Below are positions 2,013 to 9,973 of a stretch of 18,198 bases of DNA, piece by piece (the stretch's first letter is position 1; every line of letters begins with the position of its first letter). Source of the DNA: a virus (Duplodnaviria > Heunggongvirae > Uroviricota > Caudoviricetes); the IMG/VR virus record IMGVR_UViG_2740892229_000008, positions 1 through 18,198 of that record; one strand, written 5' to 3'. Position numbers and translations under genes: made by a program. The notes below the pieces were generated by a model. The model saw nothing but the letters and a program-made list of their open reading frames with translations, was not told where the DNA came from and ran no database searches.

Positions 2013-2040
2013 AATTTACCACAGATTCCGGAAAAATCAA
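2013..2040 (-). promoter_or_regulatory. pR'-like late promoter
   Basis: Minus strand TTGATT (-35, 2040..2035), 16-nt spacer, TAAATT (-10, 2018..2013), beginning 6 nt after the Q stop; the -10 hexamer is the same as I recall for lambda pR'. Confidence 0.45.
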
Positions 2041-2045
2041 CCTTG

Positions 2046-2867
2046 TTACCTAGTTACCTTTTTTAACTGCCGCTCAGCCCATGCTTCTTCAATATCAAAC
2101 CGGGTCACCAGCGCATCATAAAATTTCTTAACTGTTTTTTCCCATGACGCGCGTGTTATCTGGTTTGTCACCTCGCATATAGCATTAAATGCCTCCGTTG
2201 ATGGTAGTCTTTCATAGCCACGACCACCACAACGCTGGCAGTCTCTGATAACAGGCATACCACGTTTTACCGACTCTTCACGATGAATGGCGACACCACG
2301 CCCACGGCAATCCTTACAGGCGGTGGAAACCTCACCCTTTCCGCCACACTCCGGACAGGCAACTTTTACCACCTCCCTGACTTTTTTCCATTCTTCCCAG
2401 TAAGACGGATACACACCTTTCGTACACTTTGCCCATACCGGCGGCTTACCATCCGGATACTGGACCTTGTTTGTAAAAACTATGCTTTCAATAAATTTTT
2501 CCCCATAGCAACAAGGGCACTGCTTTTTACTCGCTGCGCTGCGGGCATAATCCTCAAAAGCGTACGAAGCCATAATGCGCATCACTACCGGTTTTATTTC
2601 TGCCGGAAGTTTTCTCAACGCCGCCACACGATCGCACCGACTGAGTGCATAATCTGCCAGTAATTCTGTTGCCCGCGCCCTGTCATTCATACTGATGCCC
2701 ATTTTCCCCAGGAACGCAGAAAAACCCATCTCAGCCCGATTCTGTGTCATGCCCTGCGCGGCCATCACATCAGTGATACTCAGCGCATCTTTTGACGTTG
2801 AGGCCGATGCATCGGTCAGGCCAGGGGATTTTGGGGAGTAGTATTTCGGTAAATCTTCCAGTTTCAT
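2046..2867 (-). CDS. antitermination protein Q, lambda-Q family (273 aa)
   Basis: YSPKSP and TDVMAAQGM near the N-terminus, several CxxC pairs, C-terminal YDALV...KKVTR; resembles lambda Q as I recall it. Sits between rusA and pR'/tR'/tRNAs. Confidence 0.8.
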   Translation of the reverse strand: MKLEDLPKYYSPKSPGLTDASASTSKDALSITDVMAAQGMTQNRAEMGFSAFLGKMGISMNDRARATELLADYALSRCDRVAALRKLPAEIKPVVMRIMASYAFEDYARSAASKKQCPCCYGEKFIESIVFTNKVQYPDGKPPVWAKCTKGVYPSYWEEWKKVREVVKVACPECGGKGEVSTACKDCRGRGVAIHREESVKRGMPVIRDCQRCGGRGYERLPSTEAFNAICEVTNQITRASWEKTVKKFYDALVTRFDIEEAWAERQLKKVTR

Positions 2868-2881
2868 TTTTTGACCTGCTC

Positions 2882-3238
2882 TTAATGCATTATGGGGTAA
2901 ATCTTCACCCCCAGACGTCCACCAGATACTGGCTGACCACGAACGATATTGATTTCATCAAACTGCTCATCGTCCATTAACACTCCCGCATGCGTCAGCG
3001 CATCCAGCGGTGCTTTCAGAATGTTGTCCAGGTCGCGACGACGCTTATCCGGTGGCTCTGCAATCACCTTTATCGCCAGCCTTCCGGACAGGCTTAATTT
3101 CAGCCGCTGCTGGCGAACAATAAGCGCCACAGCCCGGCGATAACGCTTTCCCTCCTCCGAGATAAAATATGTGCTGCCACGGCGTCGCCAGTAAGTGTTC
3201 ACCGTCGGCGGGTAAGGTAAAACCAAATCTATGAGCAT
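2882..3238 (-). CDS. rusA: Holliday-junction resolvase RusA family
   Basis: LPYPPTVNTYWRRRG and PDKRRRDLDNILKAPLDALTHAGVLMDDEQ match the RusA pattern (LPWPPSNNRYYR, PDRRRRDLDN) from memory. Confidence 0.8.
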   Translation of the reverse strand: MLIDLVLPYPPTVNTYWRRRGSTYFISEEGKRYRRAVALIVRQQRLKLSLSGRLAIKVIAEPPDKRRRDLDNILKAPLDALTHAGVLMDDEQFDEINIVRGQPVSGGRLGVKIYPIMH

Positions 3239-3250
3239 CAGTCACCTCTT

Positions 3251-4300
3251 TTACCCAAGCACGCCAGTTGCAAAGGCGTGATCAAGAAAACGAAAAATTA
3301 AATCAACCTGAGAACCATGCTTTTCTTCGAACGCCAGCGGATCCGCATGAAGCTCGTTGTGATGCTCCCGACACAGCGGTAGCGTGAAAATATCGTGAGA
3401 TTTTGTCCCCATTCCGCCCTGACCATGACCAATCAGGTGATGGGGATCGTCGGCTGGCTTACCACAACACGCACACGGCTGTGTCTTCACCCAGCGTGTG
3501 TATTTCTCGTTAACCCAGCGGCGACGTTTAGGTCGTTTCATGAAAGATTCCGGAGGCTCAGGATCAACGGCAATGCTGACCACCGTCTTTTCCTGTGGTG
3601 GGTTCTGTTGCTGGTGGGCGTGAGGCAGCGGCGCAAGATTTTTTGTGCGCTGTTTCAGTATGCTGATGGCGGTCTGCTCTCCCGGTACGATGTCGCTTTC
3701 GCGGTACAAGGGGCGGATTTTTTCCGCACGTAACCCCAGAGAACGACGTAATACTGCCTCCGGAAGCGCGTCCGCCACCTGATTGCAGACCGCCCACCAG
3801 GATAATTCAGCCAGAGATAATTCACGCTCCTGCGTACCGCTTATTGCGTGACCGATGACGTCAATCATCCATGCTGACAGGTTTTGATGAGCAAGTTGCT
3901 CGAGTGATTCGGATGTCTGGTCACGCAGCTGGTTGTCGCAGTGCCAGCACAACACCATTGCGCCGGTACCATAACGGTGAATGACGGTTTCGCTGTGATG
4001 ATAATCGCCGTGTGGCCACTGGCAGGATTTAATATGGCGCAACAGCCAGTCAGACAATGCACCAGCACCACCAGCAGCACGAATCACCCGTGCGTTACTG
4101 AAAAACGGCAGCAATGTTTTGTCTTCCACTAGCGGCTGGTGAACGGCAGGAACAACCCCGGACGGCAGATTACGCATGCTTTTCGGTTCCGGCTCCACCA
4201 GTACCCGGGTATTGTGGAATACCGGCATGGATTCACGGCCCGGCTTAACGATCACCAGCCCGAGTTCCGGTACCAGAACAGGTCGAAGTAATACCCGCAC
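3251..4300 (-). CDS. DUF968-family prophage protein (YdfU-like) with C-terminal HNH-like Cys/His motif
   Basis: 349-aa ORF; C-terminal CACCGKPADDPHHLIGHGQGG...LCREHHNELH; position immediately upstream of rusA and Q as in Qin/DLP12-type prophages. True start may be an internal Met. Confidence 0.65.
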   Translation of the reverse strand: MRVLLRPVLVPELGLVIVKPGRESMPVFHNTRVLVEPEPKSMRNLPSGVVPAVHQPLVEDKTLLPFFSNARVIRAAGGAGALSDWLLRHIKSCQWPHGDYHHSETVIHRYGTGAMVLCWHCDNQLRDQTSESLEQLAHQNLSAWMIDVIGHAISGTQERELSLAELSWWAVCNQVADALPEAVLRRSLGLRAEKIRPLYRESDIVPGEQTAISILKQRTKNLAPLPHAHQQQNPPQEKTVVSIAVDPEPPESFMKRPKRRRWVNEKYTRWVKTQPCACCGKPADDPHHLIGHGQGGMGTKSHDIFTLPLCREHHNELHADPLAFEEKHGSQVDLIFRFLDHAFATGVLG

Positions 4301-4301
4301 G

Positions 4302-4580
4302 TTACCTCCAGATGCGTTGCTGGAATGTGCGGGACGGACGCGGTGGGCGCTCGGAGTAAGGAAGCCTGACGGAGATTATCCAGTGACGATAATCGAGGCT
4401 GAGGGCTTTCTTAATCTCGTATCCGTGTCTGCGGTAGCACTGAATTAGCCACTCGGCCTGTTCTTCAGTGCATGGGGGATGCTGGAACCAGTCAGATTTG
4501 AAAGTGCGGGAACGCCGCCCGTGCCTGCTGGCAAAGACGGCAGAATCATCAGAATTGTGTAATTTGGTATCGTGCGCCAT
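4302..4580 (-). CDS. hypothetical protein (about 92 aa)
   Basis: Track ORF 4302..4709 trimmed to the only Met (ATG at 4580), because the N-terminal extension would run through the terminator hairpin at 4653-4677; weak SD. Confidence 0.35.
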   Translation of the reverse strand: MAHDTKLHNSDDSAVFASRHGRRSRTFKSDWFQHPPCTEEQAEWLIQCYRRHGYEIKKALSLDYRHWIISVRLPYSERPPRPSRTFQQRIWR

Positions 4581-4652
4581 CGGTTGTCTCTGCTGGCGCA
4601 GCAGGTGCCAGTTGTTCAGGCTGGCGTGCGAATTGTAAACCAGAATGCTAGG

Positions 4653-4677
4653 AAAAAACAAAACCCGCCGAAGCGGG
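4653..4677 (-). terminator. intrinsic terminator (minus strand)
   Basis: CCCGC-cgaa-GCGGG hairpin (4664-4677) followed on the minus strand by TTTTGTTTTTT (4663..4653). Confidence 0.55.
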
Positions 4678-8920: not shown

Positions 8921-8930
8921 NNNNNNNNNN
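8921..8930. other. assembly gap (10 N); no contig overlap detected
   Basis: Run of N. Confidence 0.95.
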
Positions 8931-9017
8931 CCCCCCGAAAGGCTCTGTGGTTGGTATGCGCCGGGCGTGGCGCGGATACAAAAAAGGTCCGCAAAAGCGA
9001 GCGAGGGAAAATAAGTG

Positions 9018-9095
9018 TGGTGCGTTGTACTGGGTTCGAACCAGTGACCGATTGCTTAGAAGGCTGGCGTTCTATCCCGATGAGCTAATGGCGGT
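9018..9095 (-). pseudogene. chimeric tRNA-like element: 3' two-thirds of tRNA-Arg(UCU) joined to the 5' end of the degenerate tRNA-like element
   Basis: From the anticodon loop CTTCTAA to the CCA end it is near-identical to 1649..1725, but the 5' part (CCGCCATTAGCTCATCGGGATAGAAC) resembles 1739..1819; acceptor and anticodon stems do not pair. Confidence 0.35.
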
Positions 9096-9171
9096 TGGTG
9101 GCCCTTGCTGGATTTGAACCAGCGACCTGGCGATTATGAGTCGCTCGCTCTCACCACTGAGCTAAAGGGCC
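9096..9171 (-). tRNA. tRNA with CAU anticodon (Met or Ile2)
   Basis: Same sequence as 1827..1902 by eye; canonical cloverleaf. Confidence 0.85.
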
Positions 9172-9397
9172 GAGCGTAGGATAATAACGTTACGAAATCA
9201 ATGTTGCAAGAGTTCACAAATTCACTGATTCAAAATTATTCTTGTAAAAAATCTTTTAACGTCAGGCACAAAGAGCCTGTACATAGATTTGTGTAATTGC
9301 CTGATTTTGATATGTTCAATCCAGCATCAAATGAAGGTTAATTTATGGACGAAAAACAGTTACAGGCTCTAATGACCTTTATACGATTGACCCAAAT

Positions 9398-9439
9398 AAA
9401 AAAAGCCACCGTTGCAACTTAAGAGTCACTAACGGCAGC
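9398..9439 (-). terminator. tR'-like terminator downstream of the 21-type Q
   Basis: Minus strand interrupted stem GCtgCCGTT...AACGGtgGC followed by TTTTTTT (9404..9398). Confidence 0.45.
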
Positions 9440-9449
9440 TTATGCGAAT

Positions 9450-9478
9450 AGTGTTGCTCATTTGCTCAACGATGTCAA
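9450..9478 (-). promoter_or_regulatory. candidate pR'-like promoter
   Basis: Perfect -35 TTGACA (9478..9473) 6 nt after the Q stop, 17-nt spacer, weak -10 AACACT; hairpin starts almost at the predicted start site. Confidence 0.3.
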
Positions 9479-9484
9479 CACGTT

Positions 9485-9973
9485 CTATGCTACATGCTTA
9501 ATTTTCTCTACACGTTTCCGGTTTTTAAACGCACTATCCAGAATCGGGTAAATCATAAACAACGAGGCATTGAGGATTTCGTCAACTTCCCGTCGACAGG
9601 TTGCTAGCGATGGTTTTTGAATGCGCCCGCCGCCCCGGCATAACATCTTGCGAGGTCTTGCGACGCTATGATAGTAAGATGCAATGGCGTGCTTGGAAGA
9701 GCCGTGGGCGTAGTAGCTGAGGAGGATGCCAAAGGCTTTCTTGTCAATGTACATGACGGAATCGACGACCTGAGAAATCAACATTCCATCATCATCATTA
9801 CACATTGGCCTTGTCATAACTCTTCCCGGCTCCACGCTCTCCATGAATTTAGCTATTACGCTGCTCATGCGCTTTTCCAGACGACCTGAATAAACCCATG
9901 CGCCCCACAGTTCAAGCCAGCCATTCAGCCACTCATGCTGTTCTTTGGTGAGGTTTAGTTCTCTTATGCCCAC
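9485..9973 (-). CDS. antitermination protein Q, phage 21/933W-type
   Basis: 162-aa ORF with GTG start; motifs ELWGAWV and PMCNDDDG match my recollection of Q21/Q933W (ERWGAWA); lies between the ninI-like phosphatase and the tRNA genes. Confidence 0.75.

Follow-up and report, generated by a model that had tools for sequence, protein, structure and literature searches.

How three Q antiterminator genes come to lie one behind the other on the same strand is the question raised by the IMG/VR virus record IMGVR_UViG_2740892229_000008 (Caudoviricetes), which was analysed here over its whole length of 18,198 nucleotides (nt), referred to as the window. A sequence-only reading had described three unrelated Q types, each followed by its own promoter-terminator pair, and had proposed that three different lambdoid late-control modules were scaffolded together. 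According to the comparisons presented here, the window is very probably a scaffold of a draft genome joining contigs of three lambdoid prophages of one Escherichia coli strain. The tandem arrangement of the Q genes would then be an artefact of the assembly, and each prophage would possess its own complete switch of a characterised type.

Three Q families

The three Q open reading frames (ORFs) are intact and full length (2046..2867, 6583..7272 and 9485..9973, all on the minus strand) and encode proteins of 273, 229 and 162 amino acids (aa). They belong to three different Pfam families, in each case above the cut-off: PF03589 for 2046..2867 (E 6e-55; 183.7 bits versus 26.7), PF06323 for 6583..7272 (E 1e-91; 306.8 bits versus 25, model positions 1-216 of 220) and PF06530 for 9485..9973 (E 8e-25; 87.5 bits versus 26). 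These are the Qlambda, Q82 and Q21 families, between which there is no obvious sequence similarity (Yin and Ebright, PMC9388147). Among the three Q proteins of the window, no similarity was detectable either (best pairwise BLASTP E value 2.2), and they are assigned to three PHROGs (127, 304 and 943), each labelled 'anti-termination protein Q-like'.

Comparisons with PDB entries and with phage proteins agree with the Pfam results, and the family calls of the sequence-only reading are borne out. This includes the protein it had called putatively 82-type (6583..7272/7356), which is confirmed as a member of an antiterminator family. The label '21/933W-type' for the third protein is correct at the level of the Pfam family (PF06530), and the allele is that of phage 21. 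Because 160 of its 162 residues are identical to the crystallised Q21 chains (PDB 6JNX and 6P18), the product of 9485..9973 is Q21 itself, whereas Q933W is a distinct allele within the shared Pfam family, with only 32% identity over 79 aa. All three modules belong to characterised families, and nothing in them is new. Judged from their sequences, two are essentially identical to the modules of named phages (434, and 21 or the Shiga toxin (Stx) 2c phages), and the third is a common allele of E. coli prophages.

Contigs and joins

Five runs of ten N are found in the window (4791-4800, 8921-8930, 10134-10143, 15270-15279 and 17541-17550), dividing it into the contigs c1 (1-4790), c2 (4801-8920), c3 (8931-10133), c4 (10144-15269), c5 (15280-17540) and c6 (17551-18198). 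Each Q gene lies on a contig of its own (2046..2867 on c1, 6583..7272 on c2 and 9485..9973 on c3), and the co-occurrence of the three in one window depends on the joins at 4791-4800 and 8921-8930. Of the complete genomes, that of E. coli 2013C-4991 (NZ_CP027355.1) is the closest; c1 (1,245,252-1,250,041), c2 (2,120,719-2,124,837) and c3 (242,259-243,461) are each 100% identical to it. These positions belong to three separate prophages (1.25, 2.12 and 0.24 megabases (Mb), termed A, B and C in the following), which are about a megabase apart. In each of them, the respective Q has a separate set of nanS-p, holin, lysozyme and terminase genes downstream. The claim that different modules had been scaffolded together is upheld by these matches. 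The heading under which it was made, three Q types 'in one window', is true of the stretch as it stands and has no biological meaning. Among the matches listed, the last 55 base pairs (bp) of c1 were covered at 100% by NZ_CP027355.1 only, and the source strain therefore appears to be very close to 2013C-4991; an IS421 transposase pseudogene is annotated at a distance of about 115 bp from this contig end.

If the order of the scaffold were real, it would represent one composite prophage whose modules (Q21, Q82-type and Qlambda-type) succeed one another on one strand and form a feed-forward antitermination relay of three steps. Such a prophage could have originated by recombination at the shared ileZ transfer RNA (tRNA), nanS-p or ninI repeats. 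The three modules do have the same orientation in the window, the repeats that could support recombination are present (ileZ at 1827-1902 and 9096-9171, nanS-p 5' fragments at 1-135 and 4975-5105), and a lambda-Q remnant upstream of the Q82-type gene indicates that Q modules do get shuffled. However, every join between two Q genes is an N-run, and in 5,426 complete E. coli genomes neither Q-to-Q junction was spanned; the flanks of both were each found separately at 100% and were never contiguous. At least 80% of the window in one place was found in none of these genomes. Moreover, the contigs match three distant prophages of the closest genome at 100%, including the shared endpoint in the IS421 flank, the join at 4791-4800 would cut nanS-p after about 100 codons, and c2 needs a ninI upstream that is supplied by c4 and not by c3. 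A composite prophage is consequently considered highly improbable. A genuine 7-kilobase insertion flanked by the two ileZ copies was also considered and was rejected, since each of the two internal joins is a run of N and occurs in none of the 5,426 complete genomes.

For the preferred reading, a scaffold of three prophages, the contig ends and their overlaps were compared gap by gap. The ends lie in repeats: c1 and c2 have their low ends in the 5' end of nanS-p, c2 and c3 have their high ends in ninI, and the third repeat is the IS421 flank. At three gaps the adjoining contig ends overlap by 160, 128 and 162 bp with 3, 4 and 17 mismatches, respectively, and because of these mismatches the ends are regarded as paralogous alleles set end to end, not as neighbours. 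At the gap 10134..10143, one ninI segment of 160 bp occurs on both sides (9974-10133 and 10144-10303) in two prophage alleles that differ by 3 mismatches. The gap 4791..4800 separates c1 of the Qlambda-type prophage from c2 of the Q82-type prophage, with flanks at 1.25 Mb and 2.12 Mb of NZ_CP027355.1. The gap 8921..8930 separates c2 from c3 of the Q21-type prophage, the natural neighbour of c2 being c4. Since c2 ends at position 13119 of L004 and c4 starts at 13121, so that both abut in prophage B (1,177 bp at 100% identity), they are evidently true neighbours in the Q82-type prophage, between which the scaffold wedges c3. Further on, c4 switches to the allele of the Q21-type prophage, which is also followed by c5, and c6 follows the Q82-type prophage again. 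The scaffold evidently interleaves two prophages upstream of their Q genes and appends the third.

Relative to the closed genome, c4 is a hybrid: its first 1,177 bp (10144-11320, ninI/ninG) are identical to the Q82-type allele and the rest matches the Q21-type prophage, from which c4 differs by 33 mismatches clustered at 10176-11205. This may be either a collapsed-repeat chimera or a real recombinant. A 133-aa 'DUF1737' ORF (4711-5112, minus strand) runs across the N-gap 4791-4800 and does not represent a true gene. The N-terminal part of this ORF (4801-5112) corresponds to the beginning of the nanS-p/SASA esterase gene of the Q82-type prophage, and the part below the gap belongs to c1.

The Qlambda-type module of prophage A

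Promoter and terminator sites were read on the minus strand after the stop codon of each Q gene, and all module features described below are encoded on this strand. The pR'/tR' pairs reported by the sequence-only reading were recovered after all three genes with coordinates accurate to within 1-3 nt and with layouts matching those of lambda, 82 and 21. The tRNA genes it had placed after two of the three Q genes were also found by ARAGORN and Rfam.

The Qlambda-family protein of c1 (2046..2867; PHROG 127) is Qin/YdfT-like. It was aligned to Qlambda of PDB 7UBM (E 3.5e-40) in two blocks (aa 1-113 and 182-273), so that the N-terminal 113 aa and the C-terminal 92 aa cover both halves of Qlambda. 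In contrast to lambda Q, the protein carries an insertion of 68 aa between the two blocks (aa 114-181, encoded at 2325-2528) with extra CxxC motifs (CxxC...CxxC). The K-12 Qin protein YdfT (QuuQ), 40% identical overall, has the same insertion region and shares the zinc-motif insertion. A structure of the insertion-bearing Qlambda form was not found in the PDB search. This form is common in E. coli prophages and structurally unstudied, and with its 68-aa zinc-ribbon insertion it might be loaded onto RNA polymerase in a manner unlike that of lambda Q. Contig c1 is present in 1,202 complete E. coli genomes.

A late promoter pR' of the lambda type is located at 2013..2040 (TTGATT-16 nt-TAAATT). 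When lambda pR' and c1 alone were aligned with MAFFT, the two sequences were out of register; the register was restored by adding K-12 Qin as a third sequence. In this alignment, the -10 element TAAATT is identical to that of lambda pR'. It is followed after 6 nt, the spacing found in lambda, by AACGATGGG (1998..2006), a lambda-identical sigma70-dependent pause element AACGAT with GGG discriminator, which is also kept downstream of ydfT in K-12 Qin. In lambda, pause element and GGG discriminator occupy +1 to +9 (PMC5001585). The whole block TAAATT-N6-AACGATGGG is thus lambda-identical and conserved in K-12 Qin, and its role in pausing is assigned here by homology, relative to a putative start site. 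A tR'-like intrinsic terminator follows at 1940..1965 (AACCCGC-loop-GCGGGTT and T-run; whole-leader fold -21.4 kcal/mol, z-score -2.3).

The module resembles the Q/pR'/6S RNA/tR' module of lambda in its Pfam family (PF03589), in both aligned parts of the protein and in the -10 element, spacing and pause element. It differs from lambda, apart from the insertion in Q, in the sequence between -35 and -10, which is the site of the Q binding element in lambda, and in the terminator, located about 45-65 nt from the start in c1 versus about 194 nt in lambda. Furthermore, the c1 module is followed by tRNA genes and iraM, in lambda by orf-64 and S. The tRNA genes downstream of the terminator are a tRNA-Ile2 (CAU, ileZ-like, 1827-1902) and a tRNA-Arg (UCU, 1649-1725), both supported by ARAGORN, Rfam and the RefSeq annotation of the identical locus. 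The CAU tRNAs of the window were called Met by ARAGORN and tRNA-Ile of the ileZ type by RefSeq for the same genes. Between the tRNAs and the iraM-like gene, downstream of the Q module, an Rfam match to the small RNA STnc100 was found (RF02076, 132 bits, 763-952, minus strand).

The Q82-type module of prophage B

The Q protein of c2 (6583..7272; PHROG 304) is identical to Q of phage 434 over all 229 residues, a protein annotated as 'Q82-like' by the depositor. With this protein as query, the PDB search returned no relative and no solved structure, and no complete genome of phage 82 was among the matches listed (tblastn, 40 of 74 records). The assignment to the 82 type was made on the basis of Pfam, the depositor's annotation of phage 434 and the description in the literature.

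The late promoter of the 82 type (TTGCAA-17 nt-TATACT) is located at 6571..6599, with the stop codon of Q inside the spacer. Downstream of it, at about +6 to +14 from the presumed start site, an extended -10-like element TGgTATGTT (6551..6559) represents a putative sigma70-dependent pause inducer. For 82 pR', a pause inducer of the extended -10-like kind situated 9 bp further downstream than that of lambda and a GCC discriminator at +15-17 have been described (PMC5001585). The position of TGgTATGTT agrees with this account, to which it was compared by description and from the presumed start site. Instead of the GCC reported for 82, the discriminator in the window is GTA, and the module is not that of phage 82 itself. 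The intrinsic terminator, AAACCCGCTG-loop-GTGGGTTT followed by T8 (6511..6537; -15.3 kcal/mol, z-score -3.4), lies where the curated record of phage 434 also shows a terminator; the identical Q and PF06323 are likewise shared with phage 434. The gene order corresponds to that of phage 434 and of an O145:H28 prophage: ninI, lambda-Q remnant, lpxR, ylcG, Q, membrane protein, DUF3927 protein and nanS-p.

The remnant of a lambda-type Q gene (8832..8920) immediately follows ninI and precedes lpxR, ylcG and the Q82-type gene; the contig begins one base into its ATG. The translation (RLESVAKFHSPKSPMMSDS...) agrees with lambda Q in the first 19 residues after the methionine, then the frame diverges and stops. 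The remnant is also annotated in phage 434 and in RefSeq. It is the scar of a replacement in which the lpxR-ylcG-Q82-type cassette took the place of the former Q module. The lpxR gene (lipid A 3'-O-deacylase) is a moron on the opposite strand (7747-8706, plus strand), situated between this remnant and ylcG/Q82-type Q; the arrangement is shared with phage 434 and the O145:H28 prophage.

The Q21 module of prophage C

Downstream of the Q21 gene of c3 (9485..9973; PHROG 943), a 21-type late promoter is found at 9450..9478 (TTGACA-17 nt-AACACT). Stx2c phage 2851 has the same promoter sequence, which also aligns with the promoter of Sf6 that is annotated as 'nearly identical to phage 21 late promoter'. 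The promoter spacer contains a tandem 8-bp direct repeat, TGAGCAAA/TGAGCAAC (9453..9468), which is probably the Q21 binding element. According to a preprint (bioRxiv 10.1101/651190), two directly repeated subsites of 8 bp make up the Q21 binding element, and the repeat of the window was likened to it by this description. Sf6, the Q of which is a diverged relative of Q21, has a different 8-bp tandem repeat in the same place. The intrinsic terminator tR' (9398..9441; long hairpin with T7, fold -20.2 kcal/mol, z-score -5.6) forms a hairpin that is base-for-base identical to the Sf6 site annotated as 'late mRNA leader terminator; similar to phage 21'. Over 121 aligned nt, the promoter-terminator leader is identical to that of Stx2c phage 2851.

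Contig c3 as a whole is 98.5% identical to Stx2c phages (2851, 1717 and Nil2). Unlike in these phages, no stx genes follow the Q21 module; their place is taken in 2013C-4991 by a TerB-family gene and nanS-p. A tRNA-Ile2 (CAU, ileZ-like; ARAGORN, Rfam, RefSeq) is encoded downstream of the module at 9096..9171. The argN and argO genes of the Stx2c phages, located downstream of ileZ, are fused in c3 (9010-9091, minus strand) via a deletion between their anticodon regions, and neither ARAGORN nor Rfam called a tRNA in this hybrid.

Counts of promoter and terminator sites

In the region, a generic scan for sigma70 promoters and terminators yielded 21 promoter-like sites versus 18.2 expected and 13 terminator-like sites versus 9.8, which is about what chance would give. 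Of the sites of the three Q modules, only one promoter and two terminators were picked up. As stand-alone evidence the scan was dropped, its counts being at chance, and was replaced by homology to annotated phage sites and by the count of composite sites, in which a promoter is followed by a terminator. The first composite rule accepted only stems of 7 bp or more that ended ahead of the T-run, and two terminators in which the stem extends into the T-run escaped it. The rule was relaxed after the sites were known, and in this post hoc form it detected three sites in all when applied to both strands of the window, namely those of the three Q modules. Shuffled sequences gave a mean of 0.06 sites under the same rule and never three in 300 trials.

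Proposed mechanism and state of the switches

A mechanism for the three modules would follow from what is established for their families. The late promoter of lambda is constitutively active, and the same would be expected of the late promoter just downstream of each Q in the window. Constitutive activity was predicted for the late promoters of Stx phages, too (Sy et al.). RNA polymerase would pause at a -10-like element in the early transcribed region; the pause positions are +16/17 in lambda, +18 in phage 21 and +25 in phage 82 (PMC9191641). In the absence of Q, transcription would stop at the terminator 40-65 nt downstream and give a short RNA, analogues of which are the 6S RNA of lambda and StxS (PMC7547250). 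Counted from the presumed start sites, these RNAs would have lengths of about 65, 54 and 45 nt for the lambda-, 82- and 21-type modules, respectively. After induction, Q would bind its own DNA element at the promoter and load onto the paused polymerase, which would become terminator-resistant and read into the tRNAs, nanS-p, lysis and head/tail genes of the respective prophage. Given that the Q proteins are unrelated, as are their binding sites, the switches are predicted to be orthogonal, and cross-activation between the prophages is not expected.

Several points weigh against the picture of three separate prophages with three complete switches. Two of the promoters (2013-2040 and 9450-9478) were missed by the generic scan, the -10 element of the Q21-type promoter is weak (AACACT, three of six positions), and start sites, pausing and termination were deduced from homology and folding. 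As regards the assembly, c4 mixes alleles of prophages B and C relative to 2013C-4991, from which the source strain could differ there, and true linkage of the contigs in the source strain is formally possible, the case having been made from the assembled sequence and its comparison with complete genomes.

The weak -10 element could also mean that at least one module is a dead relic of a cryptic prophage with a nonfunctional Q or promoter/terminator, leaving fewer than three functional switches. In the same direction point the IS421 insertion and the frameshifted recombinase upstream in prophage A of the closed genome and the fusion of argN/argO into a pseudo-tRNA downstream of Q21. This is nevertheless judged unlikely: the three Q ORFs are full length and their products are identical or nearly identical to proteins of viable phages (434, 229/229; Q21, 160/162) or encoded by a widespread allele (c1, 1,202 genomes). 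The promoter, pause and terminator elements show no base difference from Stx2c phage 2851, the pause element of the lambda type is conserved, and the same terminator is annotated at the equivalent place in phage 434. The reading of three prophages, each with a complete switch, is retained.

A 590-aa ORF in the nin region

On the opposite strand of the nin region, a 590-aa ORF (12509-14281, plus strand) is located in a patch of low GC content (about 29-39%). Its only match was phrog_9230, a PHROG of unknown function. As for the other orphan ORFs of the window, no PADLOC or Pfam match was obtained. Some prophages carry the ORF, such as that of O145:H28 and the Q21-type prophage of 2013C-4991, and phage 434 lacks it; it has the appearance of a moron.

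Implications

In draft genomes of E. coli with many lambdoid prophages, N-joined scaffolds can juxtapose modules of different prophages, and synteny across N-runs should not be interpreted. A serial relay of three Q genes, if it were true, would imply that transcripts from one late promoter extend into the Q gene that comes next, an arrangement not described for any lambdoid phage. The scar of a lambda Q gene beside lpxR and the Q82-type gene shows that Q modules are exchanged as cassettes. As the Q21 module of prophage C is that of the Stx2c phages, a Q21-bearing prophage without stx could in principle trans-activate the late promoter of an Stx2c phage in a co-lysogen, a possibility known in outline. 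Co-resident lambdoid prophages such as the three described here use non-homologous Q proteins with distinct sites, and their late operons are presumably controlled independently of each other.

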